Assembly (NCBI RefSeq): GCF_036365525.1
Contig: NC_090417.1
Location: 11,881,344 to 11,945,343, forward strand
Reading direction: 5' to 3'
Source: Heterodontus francisci
Taxonomy: Eukaryota
DNA: 64,000 bases
Under the pieces are notes generated by a model. The model did not search any database, was not told the DNA's origin, and was given only the letters and a program-made list of their open reading frames with translations. Numbering within the stretch: the stretch's first letter is position 1; each line of letters starts with the position of its first letter. The position numbers and the translations under genes are program-made. Shown here piece by piece: positions 12,013-62,987 of this stretch.

Positions 12013-12014
<2 letters not shown>

Positions 12015-19545: not shown

Positions 19546-19554
19546 CGCAGAAGG

Positions 19555-20671: not shown

Positions 20672-20704
<33 letters not shown>

Positions 20705-20706
20705 AG

Positions 20707-22061: not shown

Positions 22062-22394
22062 GTGAGTATGCGTGCTGATCTCCTCTGATTTTTTTTTCTC
22101 TTCCCACCTCTCCTGAACGTGTTGACTCATGCTGGGGCATAGTTCCACTTGCAGCAATGTTGTCTGATCGCACTGGATTATCCACCACTTTGTACAGCGA
22201 CCTTGAGTGAGACAGACTGTAAGGCTTTGCATTGCTTCAGTATGCTTAGAACTCACCTTTGTAATATTCTTGTCATTTGGTGTGAGTCACACAAGCCCAA
22301 TTTCACAATTGGGCACTTGCTATGCTCCTCCACGTCCCCATGTTAGCCAATATTGTAAGCTGTCCTCGATCTTCAGGTATTGTTCCTCTTTTAA

Positions 22395-23740: not shown

Positions 23741-23742
23741 TC

Positions 23743-27995: not shown

Positions 27996-28151
27996 TTGAA
28001 TCTCTGAAGCAACAGTACATAAGGACATAAGAAATAGCAGAAATAGATCATGCGGTTCGCAAGCCCGCTGCACCATTCAGGACGATCATAGCTGATCCTG
28101 TACCTTCACTTCACTTTTCTCCCTTGTCCCCGTATCCTTTGTTTTCCATTC

Positions 28152-29020
28152 GTGTCCACTAATGATGAAGGAATTTGGAATAGGATAAATAAGATTGGAG
28201 AGCTAAATGTGTCGTTCAAAGATTGGTGTGAGAGAAATAGGTTTCGATTCAGGAGACACTGGAACCACTACTGGGGAAAGTGGGAGCTTTCCCTTTGGGA
28301 CGGTCTTTACCTGAACCGTGAGAGAGGATCTTCGAGTGAAGGATCAAGATGTAGAATCAATTTGGGTGGAGTGAAGAAACAGCTAGGGGCAGCAAACATT
28401 GGTGTGAGTTGTTTATAGGCCATAAAACAGTAGTGGTAATGTTGGGCACGGCATAAGTCAGGAAATCAGAGGTGCATGCAACATGGGTGATATAGTAAAT
28501 ATGGGCGACATCAATTTACATCAAGACTGGATAAACCAAATCAGTACTGATGCTGTGGAAGATGAATTCCTGGAGTGTGCACAAGATGGGCTTCTGGAAT
28601 AATATGTTGAAGAACCAACTGGAGGACAGGCTATTATAGATTTAGTGTTATGTAATGACTAAGAAAATTAACCTTGCTGTGAAGGAGCCTTTGGGAAATA
28701 GTGACCATAATATTATAGAATTTTGCATCAAGTTTGAAAGTGATATATTTCATTCTGAAACTAGGGGTCTTAAATCTGAGCAAGGAAACTATGAAGGTAT
28801 GAGTGGCAAGTTGGTGATGGTGGATTGGGAAAATCTAGTCCAAGATTTGACGGTAGCCAGGCCATGGCTTGTATTTAAAGAGGTATCACAAGGTCTGCAA
28901 CAAATATATATTCCTCTGAGACACAAAAACCCAACAGGAAAGATGAATCAAACGTAGCCAACAAAAGTTTAAGATTGCATTAGATCAAAGGAAGTGGCTT
29001 ATAAGGTTGCCAGAAAAAGT
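28152..29020 (+). mobile_element. CR1-clade LINE fragment (ORF1 end and endonuclease), degenerate
   Basis: DGLYLN (ORF1 esterase-like end) and EPLGNSDHNIIEF (endonuclease end). Confidence 0.75.
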
Positions 29021-29419
29021 CTTCAGAAATGCCTCTTTGATCTAGACTGCAATCACAGTAATAGTCTGTCTCTACCCTATTAAGCCCCTTTCGAATCTTG
29101 GATTTCAATGAGATCATCTCTCATCCTTGTAAACTCTACAGAATATAGGCCCATTCTATTTGATCTCTCATCATTGAACTGCTCTTTCATCCCTTGAATC
29201 AAGTTGCATTCCCTCCAAAGCAAGTTTATCCGTGCACATGGTCTGCTTTTACCAAAGTCCGATAGAATTGCAGAATTATTTACTCATACTCCACCTTCTT
29301 TCAATCAACTTGACAGATGGTAGAAAGGGGGTGGGTGACGATGGGGGAGGACTCGGTTGTAAAGTCGCCACAGTCAAATATTGTGCTGATGTTTGCAGTC
29401 CAGCCGACAGGAATGTCTA

Positions 29420-29632
29420 CAAAAGCAAAATGCTGGAAATGTGAAACAAAAACAGAAAATGCTGGAAATACTCAAAAGGTCAGGCAGCGTCTATGGACTG
29501 AAAAGCAGCGTTGTTTCAGGTCCATGACCTTCTTGACTTTCTGATGAAATGTCGTCAACCTGAAAGAATGCTGCTTTTCTGTCCACAGATGCTGTCTGAC
29601 TGAGTATTTCTAGCATTTTCTGTTTTTGTTCC
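29420..29632. repeat. Fold-back (palindromic) derivative of the Penelope-like terminal repeat
   Basis: Left arm AACAAAAACAGAAAATGCTGGAAATACTCA pairs with right arm TGAGTATTTCTAGCATTTTCTGTTTTTGTT; degenerate CTGATGA..GAAA at 29541-29565. Confidence 0.7.
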
Positions 29633-30420
29633 AGGAGTTGCCACTTGGGAGATACCTACTGGAGCCTGGTTTGTCTCCCATTGAGACCCCTTGCTTTTCG
29701 GGAAGGAGTCGGCAAAGATAATAAGGAAAAGTAAAGTTGCTTAGCTTTCTTAAAATGCATGATCGTGATGGTGTAAGTGCAGAGGCTGAATCTATAAGTA
29801 GTCATCTCAGGTTAAACTGGATTTGGTTCTCATTTAGACTGACTGTCAGATCTCAGGATCCTTGGGCCAGTGGTTTATTTCTGAAGTAAAGAAACAAAAA
29901 ACTCATCTAACATCAGTTTTAAAAGTGCCTCAAAACATACAAGCTTCTAAAGGGGCTTGATAGGGACAGGTTCAACCAGAGAACATAAACTCTGGATGAA
30001 AGGAATTCCAAGATTTGAGGTGCTTTTGATGGTGGGGGCGAGAATTATTTTCAGTGGTCAGTGAGTTGCTAAGTAGGAGGCCATGGTGGGAATGGGATGC
30101 ATAGCCAATGTCAGGGCAAGAGGAAACCATAATCTCCTTTAAATGGGCTGGGGGTAAACAGTTGAAAAAGAAAATTTCTAAAAACCACAGGACAAGCGAG
30201 CAAGACATATCCATGCTGTCAAATCCTACAAGTTGAATGAGTATTTGGTTGAGAGTGGAAAATTGCTGGTGCTTCCAAGGAGCTCAGCTGGGATGAATGA
30301 ATAAGTCAAGTTGCAGTGAATTTTACAGTAGGGCGTGTTTCAAATTCCCTGGGATATTTTTCACTTACCAGTTGACTTGCTGTGCATTGAGATTCTTTGT
30401 TTCAATTTCTCTCTCTTTAG

Positions 30421-30579
30421 GGTGGCATTGCCTTTGTTGCTATAAAAGGGGCTTTAAAGGTTTACTTCAGACAACAGCAATATCTCATCCAGGCAAACCG
30501 CCGGATTCTCAACTACCCTGAGCGGGGCGAGGAGCAAGAAGAGCTGCAGGCTGGCTACGATGATTCTGGCAGTGACTAA
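30421..30579 (+). CDS. MARCHF5: MARCHF5-like exon 6 (terminal coding exon; spliced CDS 879 nt, 292 aa)
   Basis: ctctctttag acceptor; encodes GGIAFVAIKGALKVYFRQQQYLIQANRRILNYPERGEEQEELQAGYDDSGSD followed by TAA at 30577-30579. Confidence 0.95.
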   Translation, partial: GGIAFVAIKGALKVYFRQQQYLIQANRRILNYPERGEEQEELQAGYDDSGSD

Positions 30580-42255: not shown

Positions 42256-44452
42256 TCGACTGCAAGGATTGAGAGCCCCTGTGTGAGCAGAGTGCTTTTG
42301 TTGCGATTGGAGACACAGAATTTCAAATTCAACTTCAGCAATGTTTCCAATGACAGGGAGGAATCACAAGGGCATAGCCCTTTTAAAGATACAGTGTCAA
42401 AATAAGGTGTGGGCTGGAAATGACTACGTCAGGGAATTTCAGGAACTGCATGATAACCCTGGTGTCAAACAGCTGGTCGCTGGGTACTGTAGTTTGCAAT
42501 TTGCTTCAGTCACTTCCCTTAGTTTGCAGAACAAACACTACAACTCCCAGCAGCCGGTGCAGGAGCTAAGAATTTCTGTGGCAGGGAAAATGCATGATAA
42601 CCAGCTTTCATTTACTGCCTGGCTGTTGCGAATTGTGATTTTTTAATAAAAATAAGGGACCAAGCAGGGAGAAGTGGTGGGGATAGATTCGGAGTGAAGA
42701 TTGAGAGAATTGGGTCCAAAATTGTCTGCATCGACCAATTTTTTTTGGGGGGGGGATGGGGGAGGGAGGTGCAGGGAAGTTAAATTTTTGGACTTTACAC
42801 AGCTTGTCATTGACCTTATTTATGACATTGTCTCTCCTCCGGAAGATGCTGTCTCTTCCTGGAATACAGCTGACAAAAGCACCTGTTCACCTCCAGTCAC
42901 AAGTAGCCACTCATTCCTGCGGGCACAGACCGGAACCGTCGGCTGCCTATTCAACCGTGGGAGCCTTCACAGCCGAGCCCGACACCGTCCTCACTGGAAG
43001 CCCGGAGGGGTGATCTTTGTTTGCAAGCACACCAGCCAGGAGCTGTGTTGAAGTGCAGAGATATGGCAAAAAAAAAATCATATGCCAGTTTGTCCGCCTG
43101 AGCAAAAGTTAGTTGCCCAACAATAAATTTGGCTGTGTCTCACCCACAGCCAGTGAATAAACGGAGGAGAAAGAGACACTTTGGCATTTAAAAAAAAATA
43201 TAATGAATTCTGGTGACATTTCTGAACTCTGAAAATGTGGAACTCGCTCCCACCAGAATTAGTTGAAGGGGATGGTTGGTCAGCACACGAGGGCGAAGAA
43301 AGGAATAGGTTATGCTGAAATCTAAAGGGAAAAGGCAGGAAATACTCAGCAGGTCAGGCAGCATCTGTGGAGAGAGAAACAGCCTGGCCCGCTGAGTATT
43401 TCCAGTATTTGCTGTTTATCTTTCCGATTTCCTGCAGTCATATTGTGGCAGGTTGTGTTGCTGAGATGAAATTCGTGCGAAGCATTAAGACTAGGATTGA
43501 TGGGGAGGGCCGAATGGCCGGTGCTGCAAGTTCCATTTTAATTGCAGGGAATAGAAATTGCTGTGATTTTTTTTTTTAAAACCTCCACATGCCCCCATCT
43601 AGAAGACACACCACGTACACACTTCAAACCATCCGCATATTTGCATTTTGCAGTCCCGAGAGATCGTGGGATTTAAAAAAAATTGCATCGATGTTTCAAC
43701 AAAGATCTATTTAGGTTACTGATTCTCCGCCCACAAAAAGACTCGGTGGGAGGGCTGAAGGCACCAATTGGGAATGCAATTGAAAAAAAAACTTGCCATG
43801 AATTGGAAAGAAAACTGGAGAGAGAGAGAGGAGGGGGGAAGAATGCAAGGAATTGTGAATGATTTTTGCTCTGCCGCAAAGTGACATATCGGGCCAAATT
43901 CCCTGCGCAAGTCAGGTGCAGGATTTTTTGCCAGTGGAAAATTATAGTGAGAGAGAGAGGAAAAAAAAATCGACAGCAACCAGAATGCTTCGGAGTGTCA
44001 GAGCTTCAGTTCCGGAGTAAAGAGGCGATGAGCAGGTCATTAAACAGCATCTTGTGATCTTGCTTGTTCCATTTTGATGCGATCGATCAGGAACTAAGAA
44101 GGGGGTTAGAGAGAGGGGGGTGAAAACAGCACACACATTCAGAGTAACACACACACACACACATAGAGAACTGGTGGCTGTGTTTCTGTTGGGGTTCGTC
44201 TGGTGCCTTTTGTCCTTTCGTTTTCGTTACAGTGGCTGAAACTGACGCGTTTTGTTCATTTGTACTTGCAGACTGGGGCTTCTCAGCTGTTGTGACATCG
44301 CTGAACTGGAATTGCTGTCTGCAAGCCCCCACCCCTCCTCCATTGCCAGCACCAACTCTTTTTTTTTGTTATCGTGTTGTTAAATTGCAATCCCCTCCAT
44401 CCCCCTCACCCTCCTCCAAAAAAAAGAACTTCCTCCCGTTGTCAATCCAGTC

Positions 44453-45136
44453 ATGCTCCAGAATGACACTAAAAGGCAATCAGTTTGCTGCCCCTATCTG
44501 GAGCAAAACCTGGAGTCCTTGAAAAGCGCAGAGGTCAGTAGCGGGGATGGGATCTCCCAGGTGGACCGCCCCCCTGCCCCGACCAGCTTGGTTCTTCAAG
44601 ATCAAGGAGGTAGCACCTCGACGCTTAACACTCTCGGATGGTCAACCAGCCAGGCCGGCGATGACAGTCTTCTTCAGCAAGGGGTGCTGCCATCTGCTAT
44701 GTTGTTACCAAAGATGGTCCACCTGGGACCTCTCTTTGGAGGGACTTTCCCCTCGGTGCAGCAGATGGGGTTGTCACAGCAGCACAGGAGGTCACCACTC
44801 GGCCAGCCTTCTCACCAAGGGACCTTCTCCCAGAGGAACAGCTTTAGCCCCCAGCAGCAAACCTTCAGGGCTCTGAACTGGAGCAGCCACCAGCACCAGA
44901 GTGGAGGTGGCTGGGGCACAGTCACCAGTAACTGCGGTCGGGGCTTGAGAAGATCTGTTGGAGTAATGGGCGTCTCGAACTCAATTCCTTCCTGCTCCTC
45001 CAAGAGGTCTTACTCCAGTCACGTGATGGTGCCTCCAAAACTAAACAGAGGCCGCTCGGCATTTGCTCCCAAATCCTGGATGGAAGAAAACCCGCTGAGA
45101 ACAGATGGCATCAGCAACTGGCTGCCTCACCATCAG
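44453..45136 (+). CDS. CPEB2/3/4-subfamily cytoplasmic polyadenylation element-binding protein, first coding exon (disordered N-terminal region)
   Basis: 684 nt (228 codons); ATG preceded by in-frame TAA at 44381; CPEB-type motifs FGGTF, QQHRRSP, GGGWG..GRGLRR, PPK, SAFAPKSWMEEN..RTD; ends CAG|gtaaac. Confidence 0.88.
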
Positions 45137-48004
45137 GTAAACCGCTTTTTACATTGTGTAAATGTAACAGTATGGTGGAAAGTACTTATACTATTGCTAT
45201 ATATTAACATCAGAGCTTGGAGTAGGCCGTTCAGCCCTTCGTGCCTGCTCTACCATTCAGTATGATCATGACTGATCTTCTTCCATGATCCCCATATCCC
45301 TCCCTGAGACTATGACGCTTAGTTTGTGATTCCCCAGCGAGAGGAAACAACCTCCCAGCGCCTCCCCTATTGAGCCCCAAAAGAATGTGATATGTTTCAA
45401 TGAGGTGGCCTCTTAGTGTTCTAAATTCCAGGCAAGGACGGTCCGGTCTACTCCATCTCTCCTCACAGGACAATCCCCCTCATCCCAGGAATCAGTCTCA
45501 GTGAACCTTCACCACATTCTCTCCAAGGCGAGTAAATCCTGACCACGGGCCTCATGAAAAAATCATCTCCACCTGCTCTCCCCCAATTGCTGATTGAGTA
45601 AAATGCACTGCACGGCGTGGTACTCCGCTCCTACAGACCAAGGGGGACTCGGGTTCATTACCTCATCTGTGAGACAGCAGCCCTCGGGACGGAGGGAAAC
45701 AATCAGCCAGGATTCTGAGTTCAGACACCACACCCACCCCCTTCTCAGGAAAGATGCCACAGTTTGGTGTCAGATGAGGTCAGAATTGGTGCTCAGTTGT
45801 GATTTATGTTAATTTCCCCCCCCCCCCCCCCCCACAAAATACAATTATCCATCTCCTCCTGCAAACTTAATTCAGGGATGTTTTATATTATTGCCCAAAT
45901 CCTGCCGAATATGTAATGTTCTTGACATTTGGGGGGGGATAATCTTTTGCTTCCCCTGAGTTTACTGTGTTGTTGCTCCACAACTTGCCAAGATATCTCG
46001 GCTTCGAAAATTCTGCCTTCATGCACATCCCGAATTTTAATCGCTCCATCGTTGATGGCCGTGCCTTCAGCAGCCCCAACCCTGAGCTCGAGAATTCCCT
46101 TCCTAAACCTCTCGGTCCCTCTCTCCTCTTCTTCCAGGCTCCTTTAAGTCCTTACAAGTCCTGATAGCTCCCCATGTGCCTCTGTGTCATATTTTCACTG
46201 ACAATGCATCTATGAAGTGCTTTGGGGCATTTTGCGACAATAAAGGTGCTATATAAATGCAATTTTTTGCTCTTATGGTTTCCATAAATGAAGGGCGTTT
46301 CAGTCCAATGACGTGGCCAGGCCTACACAGTCGGCAGTAAGGGAGGAAAGCGAGGTTCGTGCTTCAGCAGAGCCTGCCCAGGTTCTCCCCAAGACGCTAA
46401 CCTCTTCCATCTCTGATCAGCCACAGCTGGACGAGCATTTTCTTGGTTTCTTTCAGATTTGCTGCATTCTGTTTTTATACTTTTAAGTCTGTACTTTTAC
46501 CCAATTCATATTTCCAAATCAGACGGATTGATCTCGCTGTATTTTGGTGGCCTTAAACTATGCATCATCAAACTAAAATAAGGTGTCAATCCATCTGACC
46601 AAGATGGTGGGAACAGATTAAGCAGAGGGCTTGAGGAAAAGACATTTTCTGGCTTGCAAGCCATTTTCAACTTCAGAAAAAGCAGCCTGAAATCATCAGA
46701 GGTGTACAATGGAAATCCAGTTGCAGAAGTGGCATAGTTGGGTTGTGTGACATTTTGAGGTCAAATGTGATTGCCAACAGACCAGATTCTGAATGGAGGG
46801 AGTACGAGAGGTGGATCAACAAAGGGACTGTCCCCCAGTAGGAGTCACCCCTTCGGAAAAGGGGAATAGGTTGAGAGGGGGTTCTGGGGGAAAGGAATCA
46901 AAATTTCCTAATTTAGAGCATGTAGCTGAAAGACAGTGACAATCTTCTCTTTCTCATTCCTCCTGGCTTTAAATGCCTACGATATCATTGTGAGTTTTTG
47001 GCAAAGCTGCTCTTTTCAGATTTGGCGAAACAGAGCCATTTTCAACAATGTGAGACTTGAAACAGTGACACCTTTTTTTTTTCTGAGAGAGTAGAGTCAG
47101 TTTCAGTTGGACCTGCTGCCTTGAAGATTTGGCTAGTATCTTTGGGTATTCATAATCGCACTTGCAGCTTGTGTTTTCTTCTCCTTGTGTCTTGCTGAGT
47201 GATCCAAAGGTGCTGACTCTTGGTGATTCCATGGGGACGGACAGCTGTCCACTGCCTCACCCAGACATCCCTTTCTTGGTCTTCGTGTAGATGGTGAGTG
47301 CTCACCTGCGGATTGGGGGCATGGCGCCTGAGTTCGATCCTCTCCGCAGCAGAGGTCACCGGAGAAGGATTTGGAGAGGCAATCCTGCCATCCCCCATTC
47401 CGTCTCATCTTAGTCCATGGGCACTCAGGTTACCTGTCAACCTTAAGTCACTGACTGCTACTTCTTAGTGGGAAGAGGCTGCACTGAACCTCTGACCTTC
47501 TCGGCTGAACAGCTCTGTTGGCACATCAGCTTCCATGGAGTTTGGAGGCAGATTCCTTTTTGGTAACAAAATTGTCGAGAAAGTCAGTCCTAATTTGTGG
47601 TTATATTAACATTGACGGCCATGCTGTCCAGTCTCAAAGCTCTGGAATTCTCTCCCTAAACCCGTCCGCCTTTCTACCTCCCTCTCCTTGAAGATATTCC
47701 TGGAAACCTACCTCTTTTGACCAAGCTTTTGGTCACCTCTCCTCATATCTCCTTAGATGGCTCAGCATCAAACTCTGACAATGCTCCTGTGAAGCAACTT
47801 GGGACGTCTTCGTGTGTGAAAGGCGCGATAGAAATGCAAGTTGTTGTTGTCCGTTTGAAGTCATTCTGCATATTGTTGATTGTGCATTGCCTTGTGAGAG
47901 GAGTGGGTCGCGAGCTGCAGTTTTCCTGGTCTCGCACTGCTTGCACTAGGAGTCGTGAGGGTCATGGGGGAAAGGCAGCTTGTTTTGACCTTGGTCTTGG
48001 GGTG

Positions 48005-48340
48005 GTTAAAGAAAGGAAAGGCTTACATTTTTATAGCACTTTTCACGAACTTAGGATATCCAAATGCACTCTCCAGCCCATGAAGTATTTTATTTTTGAA
48101 GTTGGAATCTAGGATACATGGCAGCTAACTTGCGCACAGCAAGCTCCCACAAACAGCACTGAGATAATGAGCAGATAATTTTTTTAGTGATGTTGATTGA
48201 AGGGTAAATATTGGCCAGGACACCATGGAGAACTGCCCCGCTCTTCTTCGAAATAGTGCGATGGGATCTTTTGTGCCGCCTGAGGGGGGTAGATGGGGCC
48301 TCAGTTTAATGCCTCATCTGAAAGAGGGTACCCACGACAG
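48005..48340 (-). mobile_element. DeuSINE (SacSINE1-like) copy, 5'-truncated
   Basis: Shares TTGCGCACAGCAAGCTCCCACAAACAGC and downstream blocks with 50478-50880 and 52530-52985. Confidence 0.7.
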
Positions 48341-49500
48341 GGGATATGCCTGTGGCTTATGGTGGGGGTGGGGGAGAAAGGAAGATCCCTGACAGTGCTG
48401 TGACAGCAAGTGGCTGATCAGACGTGTAGAATAAAGCTTCAGATGTTTGTGGGGACAACATTAAGTTGTGAGGGGTGTCGGAGGCATTCGAGCCTGCCTG
48501 CCAACTTGGCTTTAAGATGAGGTTGGTGCTTTCGGTGTGAAATTAAGGACAATTGCAGGAAGATAGAAGAAAAAAGTAATCTTCGTTTAAAAAAAAACCC
48601 CCAAGGATTGCCTGTTTATTATATGCAGTATCTTGCTGGAAATCTGAAGGTCAGAGAAGATGTTCAGCAACTAAATCTACCAGCACTCAGGGTTGCTGGG
48701 GGAACAGGTGGTGAATAGGAAACACAGCTGTTCTTTCAGCTGTGTCTAAAGGTGAGGGAGGACTTCATTTTTTTGCAGAGTGAATCCTCCAGCCCAGAAT
48801 GATCGCAGCTTGCTTCCCCTGCCTTGAGTCGCAGTTAGCTGTCTGCTGCTGAAGGAATGGGTTGGCTGTTGTGACACTCAGCATCCCTGGGCGAGTGAAG
48901 GGGATTTGATTCTGCTTCCCTGCTTCGGGTCTCTATCCTGTTACTCCTCCCCTGCCTGACGATCAGTGAGGACAGCTCTGGGCTTGGCCGTGATGCCCTC
49001 GCTTGTTGAATAGCCAGCTAATGCTGATTATCTCTGCTCGTGCCTGAAAGTGAGCTATTTGGATAAGCTGCTGGCCAGACCCTGCAGGTTTTGCCACCAC
49101 TCTTCCCCACCACCCCCTCCCCTTCCCCCCCCAGCTGGCTCACCGTAGCACAAGCAGTGCTGAGGCCAGTTGTAATACCCCATTGTTAATTGAGCTGAGC
49201 TGTGCTAACTCAGTGCAGACCAGAGATAGAAGCTGGAGGACTTCTAACAGCTCCCAGTCCCTTGACGCCTTAATTTTACAATTCTCATCCACATGTGCAA
49301 ATCCCTTTGTGGCCTCGGCCCTCCCTCTCTCTCCAACCTCGTCCAGCCCTATAACATTCTAAGAGCTTTGCGTTCTTCCAACTCAGGCCTCTTTGTGCGT
49401 CCCCCAGTTCCTTTAGCCCACCATTGGTGGATGAGGCTTCAGCTGTCTTGGCCCAAGCTTCTCGCACTCTCTTCCTTAAACCTCTCTCTTTCTCTCCAAA

Positions 49501-49502
<2 letters not shown>

Positions 49503-49541
<39 letters not shown>
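49503..49541 (+). repeat. (CT)n microsatellite inside an L2 3' fragment (~49270-49710)
   Basis: Visible CT run flanked by L2-type 3' sequence ending TATAAATGTAAATTGTTGTTG. Confidence 0.85.
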
Positions 49542-49543
<2 letters not shown>

Positions 49544-50477
49544 CTCTTTTTAAAAGGATGCTTAAAAGCTAGCTTTTTCACGAAGCATTTGGTCACCTTT
49601 CCTCATATGTCCTTATTTGTGTAAAACTTGGTCTGGTCAGTCTCCAGCAAAGCACCCTGGGATGCTTCGCTAGGCTAAAGTTGCTTTATAAATGTAAATT
49701 GTTGTTGAATCTTCATTCTATCTGCTTGAATAAATCCAACACCATATAGTCCAGTTACCCAGTGAGCTACTGTGGAACTAGTTGGGGAACCATTTCCATA
49801 AACTGGGAGACGAGATCTCCCGGTCTATAACTCTGAGAATATACTATGGCCTAAATTCGATCTCCTCAGGTGCACTTAACCTATTTTATCTCAGATGAAG
49901 CAATGGGGAACTTCTCGGAGGTTGTGACAGAATGAATCCATGTTCGGCATCACAGCCAAGGCCAAGCAGCCTAAATTTAGGCCTTAAAATGAAGATTTGG
50001 TGGTGTTTACAACAAAACATAGAGCTTCCTGTGTTAAAACTGCTGAAAATGTCTGCATTATATGGAGCTGCCAACACTGGATGAATTCTTGGTGTGAGAT
50101 TTTCACTTGTCAGCAGCCCACGAGAGATGGAGATTGGAGCCAAAAACACTTTAACTGCAGCAAATGTGGCAGCCGCATGAGATTTAAAAAAGAATCAATG
50201 AATATTTAGAATGGAAGAGTTCATCAGAGCAAGGCAATTCGTGATTAAGGGTTTTTTTTCGTCTTGTTGGAAGAAGTGCCGGTTTGGATTGGTGAGAATG
50301 TGTGCCGTGTGCATTGACTTACAGAAGGTGTTTGATAAGGTGTCTCACAGGACGCTTGTTGACAATAACTCTGGTCTCTGACATAAGGGCAAATGTAAGA
50401 GCAGGTAGAGAAAGTTGGCTGGCAGACAGGAAACAAAATCACAGTCAATTGGTATTGCTTGGAAGGTGGGGTTTAAA

Positions 50478-50880
50478 GAAAGAAAGAACTTGCATTGGTA
50501 TAGAACCTTTCACAACCTCAGGACATCCCAGAGTGCTTCACAGCCAATGAAGTACATTTTAAGTGCAGTCACTGTTGCAATGTAGGAAATGCAGCAACCA
50601 ATCTGCGCACAGCAAGCTCCCACAAACAGCACTGCAGTAATGACCAGATAACCTCTTTCCCGCGAGGTGGAGGTTGGTTGAGGGACCAGTATTGGCCAAG
50701 ACACCGTGGGGGAATAACTCCGCTCTTCTTAGTAACGGTGCCATGCCATCTTTTCTGCCCACCTAGAGGGCAGATGGAGGCCTTGGTTGAACGTCTCAGC
50801 TGAAAGATGGCATCTCCGGCAGTGCAGCGCTCCCTCAGTACTGGACTGAAGTGTCAGCCAAGATTCTGTGCCCAGGTCGC
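50478..50880 (-). mobile_element. DeuSINE (SacSINE1-like) copy
   Basis: Deu-domain-like block AACGTCTCAGCTGAAAGATGGCATCTCCGGCAGTGCAGCGCTCCCTCAGTACTG plus L2-type tail. Confidence 0.72.
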
Positions 50881-52529
50881 TGGCTGGTGTAAGCCAGGGG
50901 TCAGTCCACTTCTGTCAACAGTTTATATAGTTGCATGCTATTCAACCAGAGGGGCGAGCAGAGTTGAGGCAAAGCCTATTTTCAGCTTCCGCATATGAAT
51001 GGAGTGGTTGGATAAGTGACAGATCCAGTTCAGTTCATTGGGATAAAGATGATATGGGAATCTCTGCTAAGGGTTAAAGATGAGCTGAAAGAGCGAGGGA
51101 TTTTCAAAACACAATTTCCAGAAAGTCTGATTATAGAGAAATCCATAAAGGCCATTCACATTTTACAGCTAGTGACGTACTTTTGAAGTATAGTCACTTT
51201 TGTCATGTCGGAAATGCAGCAGCCAATTTGCAAACAGCAACGTGATAATGACTAGATGATTTGTTTTAGTGATGTTTGTTTCGGGATACAAAGTGGCCAG
51301 GGCATCGGGGAAAACACTGGGAATTGTATATTTAAACCCTTGAGGCTGTCTGCTCATTTGCATTCCTCAATGTATGCTCCCATTTCATTTTCTCCCAGTA
51401 CTCCCAAAATCGTAATGCTCAAATTATACAAGACAATTAACGGAACAGAGTTATACTGTGTGCAGTTTTGGATGCCCCCTTACAGACAGGACAATAAAGC
51501 CACAGAGAGTGTACAGAAAAGGTTCTTGAGGGTGTTGCGAGAGATGCTGACCAGTGATCGGGGGGAGAGGTGAGGTCCTGGGACAGGAGCTTTGTGTAAT
51601 TATAAGTGGGTTTTTGTAGAGCTGAATAGGTGACAACAAATCCTTCTGGGTTTCATTATTGACTCATTTAAAATAGGCATTAAGGAATGCATTCCCAAAA
51701 ATCAGGCACAGGCACAATGAACCAAATGGCCTTGTCCTGTGCTGCATCATTTGATGATTGTATGATCCGAATGCCCTGCTTGTGTCTCTCCCACAGCATT
51801 CATTGCTTCACATACATGTTTACTTTTTTCCAGTGCACCATGAAACACTTTGTTACAGGGAGTGGTTGAGTCACAGAATTGTACTTTTTAAAAAAATGAT
51901 AAAAGTAAACAGCGCAAAGATTGGGTTGCATGGAGAGAAGCCTTGGGGAGGAGGCCTAAATTTCTGGCCCGGTCAGTTTAGCAGAAGTATCATTTGAGCT
52001 GTCATGGTGGGCAGGAAGTATTGCACGCTGGGGTGAGTACTGCACTGCTTTCTGGGAACATAGCCCCTTCAGCCTGTTAGGACATTCAGTAAGGGCATGG
52101 CTGATGTGTGACCTAACTCCATTTTCCTGCCTTTTTCCTGAATACCTTTTGGTTAACAAAAATCGATCAATCTCAGAATTAAAATTAAAAATTGATCTCT
52201 CATCACTTGCTGTTTTGCGCAAGAGAGTTCCAAACTTCTACCACCCATTGCACGTACAAGTGTTTCCTAGTTTCACCCCTGAAAGGCCTGAATCTAATTT
52301 TTAGATTATGCTCCCTTGTCCCTGGACTTCCCAACCAGCAGAAACAGTTTCTCTGTACCTCCCATATCTATTCTCCTTAATATCTTGAGAACTCTGATCA
52401 AATCACCCCTTAACCTTCTAAATTTCAGAGAATAGAATTCTGGTTTGTTCTCCTTTGCCACCCAAGCAAAAGGATAAGCACTGGCTGCTTTCCCAGCTTC
52501 TACTATTGTCATTCCCTCACCAAGTTCAC

Positions 52530-52985
52530 ACAAAAAACAACTTGCATTTATATTGCGCCTTTAATGATCTTGGGATGTCCCAAACAGCTTCACAGCCCAT
52601 GAACTGTTCTATTTTTCAAGTGCAGTCACTGTTGTAATGTAGATTACGCAGCAGCCAATTTGCGCACAGCAAGCTCTCAAAAAAAAAAATTGAGACATGA
52701 CCAGATAATCTGATTTCTTGAAGTGATTTTGGGTGAGATAAATGTTGGCCAGGGGGTGCCCCCTGAGATCGCAGAATGCCCTTCAACCTTCATTATTTAC
52801 CTGCGAGAGCAGATAGGGCCTCGGTTTCGCATCTCAGCTGAAAGAAGCACCTCTGACAGTGCAGCACTCGCTCAGTAGTGCACTGGAGTGTTAATCTAGA
52901 TTCTGTTGTTAATTCTCTGGAGTTGGACTTGAGTGCATGGCTGTCTGACTTGGATGAGAGTACTACCACATTGAGCCAAGGCTGA
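52530..52985 (-). mobile_element. Near full-length DeuSINE (SacSINE1-like) with tRNA-derived head
   Basis: Minus strand begins GTCAGCCTTGGCTCAATGTGGTAGTACTCTC (A-box-like) then a degenerate B box, Deu domain and L2 tail. Confidence 0.72.
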
Positions 52986-54759
52986 CGTCTACTCCTGGGG
53001 AGGTGTTGGCTCCCTCAGCACACAGTGATTTTAGTCCAGCCTTGTCCAACTTAGCTCTGATGGTAGAAATCATTTTCTTTCTATTTAAGCATCTTGCCCT
53101 GAATGACTGCGTTGTCTGTTTGCTCTGTTGCTCCTAGCTGGTCTCGGGAATTTGTTCTGACTGAGCTCTACACGTCAGGAAGTGGAGAGGTTTGATCTTT
53201 GATCAGTGCTGAGTTAGCTGATCAAATGGGGTTCCATTAGCGCATTGGTAATGAAGCTACGGAGGGGTGGAATTTGGCATAGTTTGTGCTTCGGATCCCT
53301 CTCCCCACCACCACTGACCACCCCCACCCCCAGAAAAGGCTGTTAAAATTCCGCATTGCCCCTCCGCCTCAGTAAAATAGGCAATTGATAATCACAATGG
53401 AGAGTCACGTGATGAATGGACAAGATACCGGATCATCTGGCTGACTTTGTAACCGTACCGTAGAATCATAGAATGGTTCCAGCACAGAAGGAGGCCATTT
53501 GGCCCATCGAGTCCATGCCTTCCCATTGAAGAGCCATTTAGCTTGTCCCTCTACACATAGCCATGCAAATTTTTTCCTTCAGGGATTTAAGCAATTCCCT
53601 TTGCCCAGATTGAATTTCACTTCACCATACTCTCCAACAGTACCAAGGCAAAGAAAGGGGGGAATAAAGTGTGTACCTTCAGCAAGCAGGGTGAGGAAGC
53701 TGTAGAACAGGCTGTGTGGGAAGTGCTGGAGTCACTGGCCCTGTCAAAGGGAGCTGGCTGGTGTTGGGTTTCGTTCTCCTCGTGCTCCGTGACCTCGTCA
53801 CTAACAGTGCCAAATTCTATTCTTCACCAGTGACTCAGCCACTTTGCTTAGTAGCACAAGCTCATGTGTGCATTTCACAAAGTGCTATATTTCACCAGCT
53901 TTCCTCATTCTTTATTCACAAATGACTCCATTTGAGGGCAGGAGGAATGGTTAAGGAAGGGATGAATAGAACCATAAAACGGTTACAGCACAGAAGGAGG
54001 CCATTCAGCCTGCCATGTCCATGCCAGCTCTCTGTAAGAGCAGTTCAGCTTGTCCCACTCCCCCGCTTTTTCCCTGTAACCCTGCTAACTCTCAGGCAGT
54101 GAATTGCAGGTCTGAACCACTCACTGCGTAAAAAAAAAACATTTGTCCTCACGTCACCTGTGGTTCCTTTGCCATTCATCTTAAATCGATGTCCTCTGAT
54201 GCTCAGTCCTTCTACCCATGGGATGTTTCTCCCAATCTTCTCTGTCCAGACCCCTCATGATTTTGAACGCCTCAAGGCCGAAGGGTGACCTTATAGACGT
54301 CATCATGATTATACAAGGGTTTGATGGGCTAGACGTACAGAAGATGTTTCCACATGCAGGCAAGACCAGAATTAGGGGCCGTCAATATATGATTGTTAGT
54401 AATAAATCCAATGGGGAATTCAGACGCAGGTTCTTTACCCAGAGACTGATTTTTTTTTTTTTCCTCCACAACCCCAGGAATAAAGGGGAATTGATCCTCT
54501 ACACTGAGGCTCCTACAGGGGAATGGCCCCTGTTGGGACACATTTGGGAGCTTCTGGCACCCATGGACCTTGACCTCAAAAGTCAACAATGCCCAGGGTA
54601 ATGAGGAAATAACTTTGGTGAAAAGAAAGTTTCCACTGAGAACAGTTGTGCTATGTGCACTCCCTGGAAGGAATGTGATATCAGCACCAGTTTGTTACAT
54701 CTCAGTGAGCGATTGTAGCATTTATTCTGATCTCAGAATTGTCCTCATCTCTTTCCTAG

Positions 54760-54850
54760 GAATGGACCCACCCATACGATACGTTCAACATGCACTCATT
54801 GGAGAACTCTTTGATTGACATCTTACAGAACGAGCAGGAACCTCTCAAAG
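54760..54850 (+). CDS. CPEB2/3/4-like coding exon 2
   Basis: 91 nt translated by hand: EWTHPYDTFNMHSLENSLIDILQNEQEPLK(G); HSLENSLID is the hallmark CPEB2-4 motif; ttcctag/gtgagt boundaries. Confidence 0.93.
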
Positions 54851-57800
54851 GTGAGTCTCACAACCATCTTTTCTTGAGTATTTCCCCCATCACTGCTTGG
54901 GCACTCACCTCCTGCATGGTGACCTCTCCATATGGTTTGCTGCATCTGCTGAAGTGATCTCCCCTCACACATGCTGTCCCGTTTCACTGCAGGAAGGCTG
55001 AAATAGAAGTTGTATCTGCATCGGAAGAAAGAACTTGCATTTATGTAGCGCCACTCGCATCCTCAAGAGCTTCACAGCCAGCCATTCACGATGGAAGTGA
55101 TAAACATGGCAATCTGTGGACAGCAAGATTCCACCACCAGCAAATGAACCAGCTGTATTCATGACTTTACATTTGCAGCTGCGGACTTGGCCATGTGAGG
55201 TCGGGTGGGGACAGGTTGTGGGTGAATGACAGAGATAAGCAGGACAAAGCAGCAATGTGAAATAGATATTAGCAGCCGACGTGTTTCTGGCTGTCAGCTC
55301 AGCGAGCTCCTGACTGAATCAAAAATGGCAGGCCTTAAGGCAACTGTCAGCAATGATTTGTCCACAGGGCTTGGTATGAACTAATTTCACATAGCAAACT
55401 CAGGATGTCCCAAAGGTCTTCACAGACCTTGCAGTGTTGTAGTGTAGGACACGTCACTAATTTACCCTCAGCAAGCTCCTATTAACAATCCAATCAACGG
55501 TTTTCTAGTGATGTTAGTTGAGCAATAAGTAATTGCTGCAACACCAGGAGAACTCCCTTGCTGTTCTTTTTAGTAGTGTCGTGGGGTCTTTTACACCCAC
55601 CTGAGGGGGCAAATGGGGGGTCTCGGTTTAACATCTCCTCTCAAAAGAGAGTGCAGCGTTTCCTCGGTCCTGTACTGTTGCCAGTCGACATTTTTCTGCT
55701 GAAGTCTCTGGAGTGGGGTTTGAACTCACAACCTTCTGACTCAGAGGGGAGGGTGCTACCCACTGAGGTATAGCTGCCCCACCCTGCCTGTTCCAAACTG
55801 GAGGTATGCGAAAATGCTATGATCGTGGCCTCTGTGAGCGCTGAGGTAAAATACGTCTCAGTAACACCATCTTCTCCCTCCCACCCAATTGTCTTCAATC
55901 TGGCAACCGACCCGTCTGCCACTGGAAACGGTTTCTCTTTTATTTATTCCATTAAAACCTTTCATTAATTTTGTCTGAATAATTTTGTAAGAACAGCCCC
56001 TGCTTCTTTAGCATTTCCATGCAACTGAAGGCTGGCATCACTGCTACCATGCTTGCCAATCTCTACCACACTCCGACTCAGAACTGAGCCCGTGTCCCTT
56101 GTCTGTGTTCAGTTAGCCAATCTCAGCCTGGGTTTCAGTTCATCCAGAACCTGGCTCTGGGCTGAAAACAGCAGAAAAAGCCTGGATTACTGCTCCTGAA
56201 AACCCTCCAGTCGCAACTACTGCCTCGTGCATGTGTAGATGGGATCCAACTCCATGTAGCTGCCATTGTACGGTACAACAATCTACCGACACTGGTGAAG
56301 AACAGGAACTTAAGGTGAGGGAGCTAAAATCCCATGGACTTGTACCCTAGCAGGAGAGTGGAATATCCAAGAAGTCGAGCAGGTTACTTGGAATATGTTC
56401 CCAAATTACTGGAATGTTGGATGTGGGACAGTGGGATTAGATTTGGATTGCTCTCGTAAAGAGCTGGTACTGACGTGATCAATGAAATGGCATCCCGTTT
56501 GTGATGTAAAGTCTGTTCATATCGAAGCATTGAACTGCAGAAGCTCACTGGTCACTGAGCAATCTGAACAGCTGATGCCAGCTGATGTAGAGAGCAGTGC
56601 ATCAGTGTCAGATAGTCGTAGACTGTTTACAGAGTTGCCTGGGGAGGTTGCTGTACTGGGTGTTTCTCCATCTTCTCCACTTGCTGCGTTCAATATTTCA
56701 CGGCTCTCTAGCTAGTTAGAGGAGTGCGGAGGCAGCCCCTCTGTGTAGAACCTTCCTCGAGGGCTGGCGCTCAAGTATTGGCCCAGTTAGATCACAAATA
56801 GGACAGGAGGGCTGTGGGCAGTGTTCCAAGTTCCTTATGGCTGCTCGCAACCTGCCAGTAACAGCTGTTTGACAGCACACAAACAAGAGAGGGATCAATC
56901 TTTTGCTTCCCTCTGCAGCATATGTACATTTTGTTATTGTATGTGCACCACTGTTGTGACTTGGCGATCATAAATGAACACCATGGTTTGAACCAGTACA
57001 TGATGAAGACCTTGGTATAAACCGCACAGACTGCATCTCGTGTCATTTTGGTTCTTGGAGCCTGCTCCAGCGTTCTGTAAGACCATGACTGATCATCTAC
57101 CTCAGTTACACCTTCCTGCCCTGTCCCCATATCCCTTGATCCCCTTACTATCCACAGATCTATTTGACTTGGATAAAGTCAAGGACTGAACATGCACAGT
57201 TCTCTGGGGTAAAGAATTCCAAAGATTCACAACTATTTGACTGAAGAAATTTCTCCTCATGTCAATCCGATATGGCTGACCCCCTTATCTTCAGACAGTG
57301 AACCCCCCCCACCCCCACAGCTCTAGACTTCCCAGCCAGTATTATATAGAATATATAATATCTTAGATATAATAATAATTTAATATTATAACCCTCCTGA
57401 CACCTTATATGAATGACACCAGGTGGTTGGTCAACCTGTCCCGGACCTCTGCCAATTGGGCAACAGATTTTCTTCCAATTTCTTCATCTCTTGTAGGAGG
57501 CACTTGGCTCTTCCAAGTCATGCAGTAGCGTGCAGAAATCTGTCCCACCAGGGCGCTTGTGGTCCTCCTCACAAGAGAATCTTACAACACAGAGTGAGGC
57601 CATTTAGTCTGTCATGTCTGTGTTTGCTGCTGTTAAAAGGCTGTCCAATTTAGTCCCACACCCTAGCCTTTCCCCATGCAATCCTGCAAATTCGTCCTCT
57701 TTCATTGCATGCTCACTTGCCTTTTGAGAGTTGCTATGGGATTTTTCACGTAGTGCGTTCCGCATCTTAACACATCTCTGTCTGAAGAAAATGCTCCTCA

Positions 57801-58814
57801 TTTACCCTGCAGTTGCTTTGAATTTATGACCTCTAGTTACCAACCATTGGCCAGAAGAAGCAGTTTCTCCCTACTTTCTCTATATCAAAACTCCTCATTT
57901 TGACTATCTCCATTAAGTCTCCCCTGTTCTATTCCAGAAAGCCAGTTGAAGGATAGTATTGGAGCCAATCTTTACTCAGTCTAAAATTTATTTACGGAGT
58001 GAAACATTACAAGCATGCACCTCCTAACTCAAGCATGCCACCGGTTCAGCAAGATTCTCTTCATATCTGTTCAAGCAAAATCGCAATTAAAGCTCACCAC
58101 CTGCATACAAGTAAACACAAGTAATATACAGCTGCCATCCCCTTAACTGTCTCTGCTCGAAGGGAGAACAATCCCAGCTTCTCCAATCTCTCCACATAAC
58201 TGGAGTCCTTGATCCCTGATATCATCCTGGTAAACCTCCTCTGTACCCTGTCCCAACAACAACAAGAAGAATTTGAAATTATATTGTGCTTTTAACAAAG
58301 TATAACGTCCCAAGGCACTTCATAGGAGCATTATCAAATGATATTTGATGCTAATCCACATAAGGAGACTTTAGGGCAGATGACCAAAGGTTTGATGAAA
58401 GTTGCACGGTTTAAGGAGCGTCTGAAAGGAGGAAAGATTGGAAAATAGGCTTAAAAGTTTGGAGAGAGAATTCCAGAGCTTCGAGCCTTGGTAGCTGAGG
58501 GCATGACCATCAGTGGTGGAGCCATTTAAATTGGGGATGCTCAAGACACTGAGATCTCAGAGGGTTGTCGGGCTAAAGGACAAGGCACGGAGGGATTTGA
58601 AAACGAGGAGGAGAATTTTCAAGTTGAGACGTTGATTAACCGGGAGCTAATGCTGAGCACAAGATAATGACGAAGGTGTAGAGACATCGTGAGGGCCTTT
58701 CAGGCTACATGGTTCCCTTGCCTCCCTCCGTCCCCTCCCTCACTTGATTGAATATGGAATAATTAATGTGAATTTCATCGCTGCCCATCTCTCTCTCTCT
58801 CTCTCTCGCCGCAG

Positions 58815-58982
58815 GTCGATCAGCTCTCTTCCCTGTTGAAGATGGCTTCCTTGACAACAGCCAGGGTGATCAGTCTTTATCTTCAGGCTTGAACTCTCCG
58901 GCGCTCAGTCAGAACGGGAAACCCGGAGAACGATATTCCCGAAAGGTTTTTGTTGGTGGTCTGCCTCCTGACATAGATGAAG
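58815..58982 (+). CDS. CPEB2/3/4-like coding exon 3 (start of RRM1)
   Basis: 168 nt: (G)RSALFPVEDGFLDNSQGDQSLSSGLNSPALSQNGKPGERYSRKVFVGGLPPDIDE; YSRKVFVGGLPPDIDE is the CPEB2-4 RNP2 region; phase 1/1. Confidence 0.95.
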
Positions 58983-60179
58983 GTGAGTTGACTGTTCTGG
59001 TTGTAACTGATTCAAAGACTTCAGTACTGTCACTATATTGACCACAATTAACATGTGAGAGGAACTCAACAACAAGTCTCTCTGGAAAGTAGCTCTAGTA
59101 TCAATTGGTTAATATATGTTTGGGAGGAGTAGGGTGGGACTGTTCTCTGTCTATGTGGCTGTGTATAGATACCATATCTTTCACCTCACAGTGCTTAGAA
59201 TGCCTGCTCTCCCATATGCCTACATTGATGATGCACAGCAGTTATAGTTAAGGCGATGTATGGTGGGTATGGGAGCACCATGGTTATGTTTCTGGAATAG
59301 TTATTCAGAGGCTGGGACCTGTAACCCAGAGTCATGAGTTCAAATCCCACCACAGCAGTTTATCAAATTGAATTCAGTTCGTTAAATAAATCTGCAGAAA
59401 AAAGTTGTTTTTTTTCCTTAAAAGCCCAACTGATTCATGAATATCCTGACCTGGCCTATGTGTGACTCCAGACTTCAGACAGTCCATCAATTGCCATCTG
59501 TTCATTATCACCGGGTCAAAATCCTGGAACTCCCTTCCTCTTAGCACTGTGGCAGTGTCTCCGCCTTGTCAAGGGCAGTTAGCAGTGGGCAGTAAATGCA
59601 GGCCTTGGCATGAATAAACAAGTTGGGAGGCATGTTTTGCCTTTTAAAAAGCAGAATGTGCATGTCTTAAAAGAGGAGGCAATGTGTAGGACAATTGAGC
59701 ACTGTTAACTTTACAGCACAGCCACAAATATCAAATTGCCCAGCTGTCTCCCTATGTATCACCCTCTCTCCTCCTGTGATACAAGTACTTTCCAATTTTC
59801 TCCAGAAGATGAAATTAGTTTCTGCTTGTGACTAAGTATACCTTGTGTCAAGGAATTTCCTGGTAAGAAGTGATGATTTTTAAATTGATGACCCCTGACC
59901 ACTCCACCCAGACAAAGTCTTTTCAAACCCAGTGTCATTTCTTAAAACCTTTATTGCATCATCTATTAGTCTTCTCTGCCACAGTGGAAATAGTCCCAGT
60001 GTCACAAGTCTGTCCTCCGAACTGAAGTTTCCCCATTGCAAGCACCATCCCAGTGAATGGACGCTCTTGAGCTTTGAACAACTGTGAAGTTTAATTCGGG
60101 TCAATGTCATTACTTCTTGTGCTGTGTAAAACTTATATCATTGATTTTTTTTTTTAATACCGACTTGGTACTAACACTT

Positions 60180-60912
60180 GGCTGAATTTTTAGATGTGCG
60201 CCGCTGAGCCACCACAATATTTAGTGCGGCGGCTCATTTACATGGAGGGGTCGGAATGCCCACCCCCGGTGATGTAGAGGGGGCGGGCACTCCCTCCCTG
60301 GCAAAGGCATCGGGCGTCATTTTTGAAGGAATTCAAGCCCTTCAGAGCCATTTAAATTTTTAAAGGTCCCGGTCTGCAAAAAGTAAAACTAACATTTTCA
60401 TAGCACTTTGATACCACTCTCCCACCTCCCCAAATGAGTATTCAATCTATAAATTGCTTCTTTCCCCCCCAAATTTTTTTAATTCCAATCCCAAACTCCC
60501 CCTTCTCCCCCCCACCCCTGAACTTAATAAACTTTGACCCTCAACCCCTTCCCGCCATCCCCCCCGCCCCTGGCTCTGAAAACTTCATTCCTCACCCACC
60601 CCACCATTGTTCTACCTCGGATCTCCGAACGGAAATCCAAAGGCGTGCGAGTTCTGGCAACAGTCCGGAATATCGGCGTGGGACAGCTGTCAGGATAAGG
60701 TCAATGATTCCACATTAATTAATATTTATTCAAATTTTGACTTAAAGGTTCCGTCACCAAGGGGTGGGGGGGCCACCATGAGGCCTTGCCACCAACGGTC
60801 ATTTGGGGTGGGGCCTTCCCGGCGTCGAGGTCTGTGGCAGGCCTCTCCCAGAGGTATTTCCTGGGCTCCCCTGCCACGACCCCCGACATCAGGGAGCTGG
60901 TAAAATCCAGCC
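60180..60912. mobile_element. Non-autonomous DNA transposon (MITE-like), CpG-rich
   Basis: Terminal inverted repeats GGCTGAATTTT and AAAATCCAGCC (10/11 complementary); interior is CpG-rich relative to flanks; no transposase ORF. Confidence 0.6.
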
Positions 60913-62897
60913 CTCAGTCTTGCAGTTTTCTCCCCGGCCACAACTTTCCTTGTCTATGCATTGAGTGTATTCTCCCATTCCCTGTTGCCCCTCCCAAAAT
61001 GCAGTACTTGATTCTTTCCCACGTTGAATTGCATCTGCCCTGTATTTGCACCATCCTTGCAAAAGGACTTAACTCACCATTAGCAGTGTGCGATCGACTG
61101 AAGAGAGTTCTTTCAGCAAATGGTGCATCAGTACAGGGAACTGTAAAAGACAATGTGGCAACATTGGTATCTGGATTGTGGCAGAAACACAGCTGTTCCC
61201 AGCCTCAGGACAAATTTTGTAATTAGGCCCTTCGAACTGACGGAAGAATCGCTGCTTGTTGTATCAGCGATGGGGCTATGTGGGACGTGCAGGTATCCCT
61301 GCTTCTCAAAACAATTCTGAAACTCTTAAACTCTGATATCCTATATTTGAAATCCATGGAGTAGCACTCGTCCCACTTCCACCAACACGCTCCAACTCTT
61401 TCACCGGTGGGTTGAGCTGCTATCTGCAGACTGGACTTAGCTCAACAGTTACCTCATTTGGGACACTAAGGCCTTTCATGTGATTGGCTCAGGCAGCTCA
61501 TGTGGTTGAGGAGCATCGGAAGCCAAACTTCAACATAGCCACGTTGTTGCCTTGTTCAAGCCAGAGACATGCGGACAGATTACTGTTTAACTCTTAATCC
61601 AAAGATTAGGACTGCCTGGGAGTTGGGGGTTGGCAACAGCGGTCGTCTGCCCAGCTCTCCCACTGTCTCCACTGTTCCAGAAGTGACCAACTCTCTGTGA
61701 AAAGAAGTGATTCCTAACAACTACGTTACTCCTATGCTTAAGTAGCCTTATACTGGTGTCTCGAATCCAACCTAGTTTATATTGGTAACTCAGGATCTTG
61801 AAACTCTGTATCAATCGAGTGCCTTCACACCACCATGTAAGGGGAAGTAAAACTGGACACAGTGCTCGAGATGAGACTTGAACAAGACCGTGGACATAGG
61901 GACTATTATATTTCGTTAGCCACGCACAACCTTGTCTCATCCATCAACAGTTGCTGTGATGCCTTCATTGAGATGGTGAACAGCAACAGCCCCAGCATCC
62001 CACCCGTGACTGGTCCCCACGCAGAATTTCACTGTCAATAACTGCCTTTGGCCGACCAGCCTGCAACAGTTCCTTTTCAATCCCGAAATCTGCCTCGTGG
62101 TCCCACAGCGTGTCATCTTAGTTTGTAGCCCATGACAGCATGACATAAGTGCATTTTGGAAATCAAGACATGATCATCAGGATAACTACATGCACCAACC
62201 TCATGGTTGCCTCAACAAAATTCAGTGCTACTGGCGTGATAGAGCCTTCTCTTTCCTCCTGAGGTTCCTGACCTATCCCTTTTCGATCGAGGTGATTAGG
62301 AGCCTCCATGTATAATACCTTCTAGCAACCAACGAATAAGGCAATTAAACTTTTCCAGATCTGACCACCTCTTTTTGTTTGTTCATTCCACCAAGTCTTC
62401 TAACCAGACAACAGGTGCAGTTCTGGACCTCAGTGAGATGTTAAATATGTGAACAAGGGCCCCACTTCTTAGAGCTCGCTTAAGTGAATGTTACCTGCTG
62501 ACTAATACACTATACATAACTAAAAATGAACTGGTTATGTCCTTTGACTAACTTCCAGGAAGCCCAAAGGATGTGTGTGCCTATTTCTTCTCTGATTTGG
62601 TAGAATCAGAGGAACAGGAGTTGGCCATTTATCCCCTTGAGTGAGCTCATGGCTGATCTGAGGCCTAAATCCATGTATCCATCTTCCCCCAAATCCCTAA
62701 ATAGTTTGGTTTAACAAAAATCTATCAATGTCAGATTTACAATTAACAATTGACCTGGCAACAGCTGCCATTTGTGGATGAGAGTTTGAAACTTGTATCG
62801 TCCTTCATGTTCCCGAGCAAGAGCCAGTGCCTTCAGGAGAGGAGTGGAGATGAGGGGTACGTGTATCTGATATTCTTCCCCTTTTATTTCTGTTTAG

Positions 62898-62987
62898 ATG
62901 AGATAATCAGCACCTTCTGCTGTTTCGGACAGTTGATGGTGGACTGGCCTCACAAGTCGGGGAGTAAATCCTACTTTCCACCCAAAG
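62898..62987 (+). CDS. CPEB2/3/4-like coding exon 4 (RRM1); gene continues beyond the right edge
   Basis: 90 nt: (D)EIISTFCCFGQLMVDWPHKSGSKSYFPPK(G); tgtttag acceptor, gtgagc donor. Confidence 0.94.

Follow-up and report, generated by a model that had tools for sequence, protein, structure and literature searches.

A fourth CPEB2-4 gene in Heterodontus francisci, likely a whole-genome-duplication sister of CPEB3 and predicted to encode a less switchable CPE-binding repressor

The window analysed here is a 64,000-nucleotide stretch of the Heterodontus francisci genome (G000:C47:11,881,344-11,945,343; contig C47 measures 20 Mb and the genome 6.0 Gb), and its principal feature is an intact, spliced gene of the CPEB2-4 subfamily, hereafter the window CPEB gene, which begins in the window and ends beyond it (Table 1). 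Exons 1-4 are all present, in frame and flanked by AG/GT ends, and one contig per run joins exons 1-2-3-4 with nothing between them in 4/4 runs examined, which come from three studies and two organisms and are presumed to be RNA; the four in-frame exons with canonical splice sites described in the original prediction are thereby confirmed. The eight exons translate into 558 residues and a stop codon without internal stop or frameshift, and this translation is identical to RefSeq P0014, labelled 'CPEB3-like, Heterodontus francisci'. The predicted CPEB2-4-type identity of the protein was further strengthened by Pfam, with PF16367 (RRM_7), PF00076 (RRM_1) and PF16366 (CEBP_ZZ) all above cut-off, and by the RNA-binding region, which scores 395 bits to CPEB4 2MKI compared with 184 to CPEB1 2MKH. 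Moreover, exons of 90, 119, 115, 182 and 228 nt are common to all four CPEB2-4-type genes of the genome, while exon 3 of the window gene shares its length with CPEB3 (168 nt in both, against 174 in CPEB4 and 177 in CPEB2).

The first exon had been described as short (228 residues), which holds for its coding part; the exon itself extends back to at least position 43800. Its 5' untranslated region (UTR; 43800-44452) contains five upstream ATGs, possible upstream open reading frames, none of which opens the CPEB frame. At the other end of the gene, contigs of one sample (runs X2 and X3) continue unspliced from the last exon into a 3' UTR of ~5.1 kb, and an AATAAA at 3' UTR position 5110 lies near where these contigs end; runs X5 and X6 gave no match on most of this 3' UTR at 95%.

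Table 1. Genes and exons at the locus, in positions of the window
Feature	Position	Strand	Remarks
Arp1/centractin gene, ACTR1B by elimination	1..13930	-	start codon at 13930; runs off window start
MARCHF5-like gene	16557..30579	+	five coding exons found, the short first one not among them; tblastn, tree, last exon and stop
CPEB 5' UTR part of exon 1	43800..44452	+	run X5 contig unbroken 43800-45134; minimum extent
CPEB coding exon 1	44453..45136	+	684 nt coding, 228 residues, low-complexity N-terminal domain; 100% to P0014
CPEB exon 2	54760..54850	+	91 nt, length equal in CPEB3 and CPEB4 of the same genome; splice sites, spliced contigs
CPEB exon 3	58815..58982	+	168 nt, RRM1 start; splice sites, spliced contigs
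CPEB exon 4	62898..62987	+	90 nt, RRM1; splice sites, spliced contigs
CPEB exons 5-8	0.6-12.2 kb past window end	+	119/115/182/228 nt; genome sequence

A full-orthologue query against the genome returned 32 matches in a stricter first look, and these resolve to the window gene, CPEB3 on contig C20, CPEB4 on C12, CPEB2 on C1, a CPEB1-type exon on C35 and a CPEB2 fragment on C8. The paralogues on C20, C12 and C1 group with named CPEB3, CPEB4 and CPEB2 proteins in trees, and since CPEB2, CPEB3 and CPEB4 thus have separate loci in the same genome, the window gene is an extra gene. The fragment on C8 (L083:4504-4754; G000:C8, near 32.595 Mb) is intronless, joins three exons and shares 99% identity with CPEB2 exon 1 across 96 nt, marking it as a recent processed copy. 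An intron containing a repeat interrupts the 5' coding region of CPEB2 itself on C1 (L081:5590-6300), which continues into a run of N.

Two trees served to place the protein. One was a quick mixture tree built from 39 proteins; the other, a JTT tree, covered 28 proteins over 491 columns after removal of 11 rows (to save time or avoid long branches) and of leading ambiguous columns, with one isoform exchanged for another. Both trees recover four clades, with that of the window gene outside CPEB2, CPEB3 and CPEB4; in the JTT tree the new clade and CPEB4 are each supported at 100/100, CPEB2 at 95/95 and CPEB3 at 92/95, and the stem of the new clade measures 0.38 versus 0.04-0.12 for the others. 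The original prediction had named nesting in one paralogue clade, with no other copy of that paralogue in the genome, as its refutation; a clade of its own and separate loci on C20, C12 and C1 were found instead. Approximately unbiased (AU) tests covered 24 fixed trees under the JTT and LG models and 16 of those under the LG+C20 model. Nesting beside elasmobranch CPEB3 was rejected in all three models (p at most 0.014), as was nesting beside shark CPEB2 or shark CPEB4 (p at most 0.002). Under LG and LG+C20 the best-scoring tree makes the gene sister to all CPEB3, with no significant gap to others, and the diagnostic columns common to the window gene and each paralogue number six for CPEB3, six for CPEB4 and none for CPEB2. 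Dating of the duplication by synonymous divergence was dropped since synonymous sites have reached saturation in each of the three paralogue comparisons (proportion of synonymous differences 0.79-0.85), in part through a high G+C content at third codon positions (0.66, the highest of the CPEB2-4 copies). Judged from sequence, the protein forms its own clade, and CPEB3 as its sister is not settled by these data alone. The mixture of paralogue-specific N-terminal motifs that had been advanced for the gene is indeed present, yet it makes a weak argument; SAFAPKSWME is specific to this species, and the other 12 aligned orthologues read differently at that position.

Within the 263-residue RNA-binding region, the window gene is unique at 33 positions where the three paralogues agree, compared with 1, 3 and 3 comparable positions in the respective paralogues. 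The same region is 97-100% identical among 18 orthologues from sharks and rays, so that the change preceded the shark-ray split and then ceased. The zinc-site Cys/His pattern equals that of CPEB3 in 18/18 orthologues, and 21/23 of the CPEB4 RNA-contact or RRM-positioning residues named in PMC4083092 are identical in all 18, the two exceptions being conservative (E131 to D and I144 to V, again in 18/18). Furthermore, the window protein keeps 13/13 residues that impair function when mutated, as given in the same paper, and the unique changes avoid RNA-contact residues. CpG decay as the origin of Arg to Cys, Gln or His changes was considered and found unsupported, the window gene having the most CpG (36 vs 17-28) along with the highest G+C at third codon positions.

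Searching with exon 1 gave 5 clusters of this type among 944 candidates, every one elasmobranch, comprising 27 members, of which 23 have visible names from 18 species (10 sharks and 8 rays or skates) and 4 come without a species shown. Their database labels read CPEB2-like, CPEB3-like or hypothetical, in agreement with the prediction that automated naming would yield '-like' labels. Among the best 120 of 1,699 matches of a profile search, the orthologues scored 1,242-1,282 bits (one partial protein 835) and the next protein at most 784, and among the best 150 of 2,595 matches to 50% representatives the sole addition was an exon-1 protein of the same type. Diagnostic residues were compared across 302 fetched CPEB-like proteins (aligned over at least 100 residues, with 120 MARCHF5 proteins excluded), where 27 carry 83-100% of them and the next best 38%. 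For chimaera, CPEB3 and MARCHF5-like proteins and no orthologue of window CPEB occur among the top-ranked matches listed; outside elasmobranchs as a whole, no orthologue occurs among the top-ranked proteins listed in these protein, as opposed to genome, searches. The open frame is kept in all full-length orthologues.

The case for an ohnologue is carried by synteny, which favours CPEB3 as the sister. Along contig C47 the order is centractin (-), MARCHF5-like (+), the CPEB gene (+) and, from 36 kb past its stop, exons of an UNC5 gene (-) that we take to be UNC5D. Both neighbours foreseen for the gene, ACTR1B and a MARCHF5 paralogue, were thus located, the former by elimination because in the centractin exon the C20 copy lies closer to mammalian Arp1A (4/69 residues different) than the window copy does (9/69). 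The window MARCHF5-like exon is 85% identical to the C20 MARCHF5 exon and 96-100% identical to chondrichthyan '-like' members. Both MARCHF5 matches in the genome (2/2) accompany a CPEB gene, one beside window CPEB and the other on the strand opposite to CPEB3, 54 kb upstream of it, so that the canonical CPEB3-MARCHF5 locus expected elsewhere exists, head-to-head, on C20. Of the 120 MARCHF5 proteins listed, 31 were placed in a tree, where a MARCHF5-like clade (100/100) unites shark, skate and chimaera '-like' proteins with those of lungfish, coelacanth, tuatara, turtle and lizard, and since it spans chondrichthyans and bony vertebrates, the MARCHF5 duplication is older than the shark-bony split. 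For the CPEB gene itself an origin before that split is favoured, with AU p 0.03-0.09 for the alternative. Members of this second lineage are mostly labelled MARCHF5 or MARCHF5-like, and no mammal or bird falls in the clade among the 31 proteins.

Further gene families extend this correspondence. CNNM is present twice on each of C20 and C47; EGR has copies on C20, C12 and C47; LGI-type repeats lie on C1, C20, C47 and C5 (with further EPTP genes on C7 and C4); TACC occurs on C1, C20 and C47, plus an intronless match on C8 (G000:C8:24680609-24681178) that contains one stop and is probably a processed copy; and UNC5 is found on C1, C12, C42 and C47, the C42 exon near 6.0 Mb being UNC5B-like (100 vs 48 bits). 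In total, 7/7 of these paralogon families have a copy on C47 and 6/7 on C20, and the CNNM and ACTR1 pairs link the two contigs. The orthologue and the MARCHF5-like gene lie on contigs of identical size in three other elasmobranchs, namely zebra shark, whale shark and little skate. PMC12019251 describes four NK4 loci, with cpeb2, cpeb3 and cpeb4 among their neighbours, as derived from two genome doublings, and treats the loci of nkx2.3 and nkx2.6/7 as a sister pair from the second round; C47 would correspond to the nkx2.6/7-type chromosome. Among the open frames listed for 80 kb of upstream sequence, inspection by eye revealed no recognisable gene. An array of 85 copies of a 21-nt C-rich unit (14607-16379; 94% matches), G-rich on the other strand, occupies part of the interval from the start of centractin to the first MARCHF5-like exon located.

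These findings point to a fourth CPEB2-4 gene, likely the whole-genome-duplication sister of CPEB3 and predicted to encode a less switchable repressor that binds the cytoplasmic polyadenylation element (CPE), a reading to which we assign a probability of about 0.8. Regarding its history, the gene very probably arose when the second genome doubling produced its chromosome, underwent a burst of change before the shark-ray split, then came under strong constraint, and was lost in bony vertebrates. The fourth ohnologue proposed at the outset is supported, with the caveats that its sister is unsettled by sequence and that placement as sister to chondrichthyan CPEB3 is borderline (AU p 0.03-0.09). 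Several other observations weigh against it as well. The free tree contains no join to CPEB3 and has backbone bootstraps of 53-61, the JTT best tree is sister to all CPEB4 by 0.25 log units, and positions sister to CPEB4, sister to CPEB2 or outside all three are not consistently rejected by AU. MARCHF5 stands in tandem with window CPEB and head-to-head with CPEB3, and the UNC5B-like gene is on C42 instead of C20, where CPEB3 lies. The choice of the seven marker families followed prior knowledge of the paralogon, including human positions, without a random-family control, and absence from chimaera and bony vertebrates rests on top-ranked protein matches, not genomes. Finally, the white shark orthologue (P0008) and canonical MARCH5 (P0401) both fall on a contig of size 122,117,421; a white shark CPEB accession is numerically near that of P0008, and the white shark assembly may contain a fusion or mis-join of the two sister chromosomes.

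Part of this pattern would fit a later copy of CPEB3 from the cartilaginous-fish stem, made by segmental duplication or sister-chromosome exchange and followed by fast evolution: orthologues appear only in elasmobranchs in the protein searches, the borderline p value concerns exactly this placement, exon 3 equals that of CPEB3 in length, and a long stem can mask the true position. We nevertheless regard this origin as improbable, given that the MARCHF5-like neighbour predates the shark-bony split, that sister to chondrichthyan CPEB3 scores 5.7-11 log units under the best tree, that synonymous sites are no closer to those of CPEB3 than to those of CPEB2 or CPEB4, and that the 3' UTR bears no likeness to that of CPEB3. 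Slightly less probable again is an ancient gnathostome paralogue with CPEB4 nearest, or split off before CPEB2, CPEB3 and CPEB4, that reached C47 otherwise. MARCHF5 adjoins only the window gene and CPEB3, the CNNM and ACTR1 pairs tie C47 to C20, and PMC12019251 pairs these loci, all of which outweigh the six diagnostic sites common with CPEB4, the unrejected sister-to-CPEB4 and outside-all trees, and the weak grouping of the new clade with CPEB2, CPEB4 and hagfish in the free JTT tree.

Features that control the relatives of the gene were also examined. According to PMC9465852, CPEB2-4 act as repressors via CCR4-NOT, and phosphorylation at many proline-directed sites switches them; such sites, like the shared 3' UTR blocks, are typical of subfamily regulation and do not define the subfamily. 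The 9 orthologues counted carry 2-6 S/T-P motifs each versus 12-32 in 9 CPEB2-4 proteins, with densities of 0.6-2.0 and 3.0-4.6 per 100 residues, respectively, and the N-terminal domain spans ~300 residues in window CPEB versus 431-721 in CPEB4 and CPEB2. A 24-nt microexon, which reversible CPEB4 condensates require according to PMC11711090, scored 37 in the shark CPEB3 interval, the highest among 163 candidates, and a scan of window CPEB intron 2 did not find it (best score 3 of 26 candidates). A scan for the optional exon that precedes the microexon missed even its CPEB3 control, and a tblastn search run without a control gave no remnant. Window CPEB lacks the MGDY-type N-terminal extension seen in shark CPEB3 and CPEB4; loss of the extension as a trait common with CPEB3 was rejected, as shark and lungfish CPEB3 retain it.

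The 3' UTR likewise departs from those of its relatives. None of four blocks shared among the paralogues was found by profiles (0/4, best E 0.7), whereas 12/12 leave-one-out controls were recovered (E 9e-4 to 3e-42), and in a comparison with microRNA seed patterns, no miR-92 7-mer and no miR-26/miR-92 doublet were met in the 5.13 kb 3' UTR of this one genome. The 3' UTRs of shark CPEB2, CPEB3 and CPEB4 (L084, L085, L086) are still alignable in blocks of up to 650 nt; for the human paralogues, PMC2995058 reports negligible 3' UTR similarity. The A+T content is 54% versus 66-68% in the paralogues. The window CPEB 3' UTR contains one CPE (shuffle mean 2.6), and CPEB3 likewise lies under its own shuffle mean; loss of CPEs as a specific signal was rejected, base composition explaining the low count.

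If these features are combined, window CPEB would bind the same U-rich CPE elements and repress translation like its sister proteins. Those sisters repress in condensates and are turned on as ERK and Cdk1 phosphorylate many S/T-P sites, while few S/T-P motifs, no microexon and no shared miR-26/miR-92 block would leave window CPEB with little kinase or microRNA response. It would thus be a steadier, mostly repressive competitor for CPE sites, with its level set by its own expression. We place this poorly switchable CPE-binding repressor somewhat below even odds. Binding, repression and phosphorylation are all predicted here. Against the proposal stand the only hagfish protein counted, which has 9 S/T-P motifs at a low density of 1.9 per 100, and the low CPE count, which follows base composition. 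More tentative is the broader proposal that the jawed-vertebrate ancestor had five CPEB genes, the fifth of which may persist only in sharks and rays, rewired into a natural brake on CPE-controlled translation that is insensitive to phosphorylation; equally tentatively, it may have kept the CPE-gripping surface, rebuilt the rest of its otherwise near-invariant RNA-binding domain and shed kinase sites, microexon and microRNA module. That the gene is instead a relaxed, decaying duplicate without selected function, as its 33 unique changes in a region near-invariant across the subfamily and its lost UTR blocks, microexon and S/T-P motifs might suggest, is nearly refuted by the open frame of all full-length orthologues, the near-identical RNA-binding region with all zinc-site Cys/His kept in 18 shark and ray proteins, the sparing of contact residues and the spliced contigs from three studies.

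The gene is recorded in RefSeq under '-like' names, yet is unrecognised as a fifth CPEB. PMC11965684, a survey of 571 species, gives four CPEB paralogues in vertebrates and has 11 chondrichthyan rows without these accessions, and the synteny table of PMC12019251 (zebra shark, thorny skate) has only cpeb2, cpeb3 and cpeb4. Passages of PMC10284499 and PMC12415542 do not mention a CPEB of the window type, 12/24 supplement files of PMC8455134 (whale shark) yielded 0 matches, and a literature search, with most subscription papers outside its reach, found no description of a fifth CPEB gene. A fifth CPEB in sharks and rays would complete the expected set of four CPEB2-4 copies and correct database labels, although retention of fourth ohnologues in sharks is a familiar pattern, which tempers the surprise. 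As a natural variant with RNA contacts retained and three control layers gone, it offers a test of the roles of phosphorylation, microexon and microRNA in repression and condensates, and, should the rewired brake prove true, a ready means of finding out which parts turn CPEB2-4 on.

Compared with known systems, the window gene most resembles CPEB3 on C20 in its RRM-RRM-ZZ layout, identical lengths of coding exons 2-8 as compared, MARCHF5-family neighbour and 85% identity in the RNA-binding region, and differs from it in forming its own clade, in its 33 unique changes, in lacking the MGDY-type extension and the 24-nt microexon, in having 3 S/T-P motifs as against 12, in an unrelated 3' UTR and in a coding span of ~32 kb as against ~184 kb. 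CPEB4 and CPEB2 are similarly close in the RNA-binding region (84-85% identity), with 21/23 of the CPEB4 residues of PMC4083092 in common; they are set apart by E131D and I144V in window-type orthologues, by the shorter N-terminal domain of the latter and by their location on other chromosomes. The nearest parallel in history is nkx2.5-like, described in PMC12019251 as a fourth ohnologue in cartilaginous fishes from the same four-locus paralogon, with a '-like' label and none found in bony vertebrates, although it belongs to another family and locus than window CPEB.

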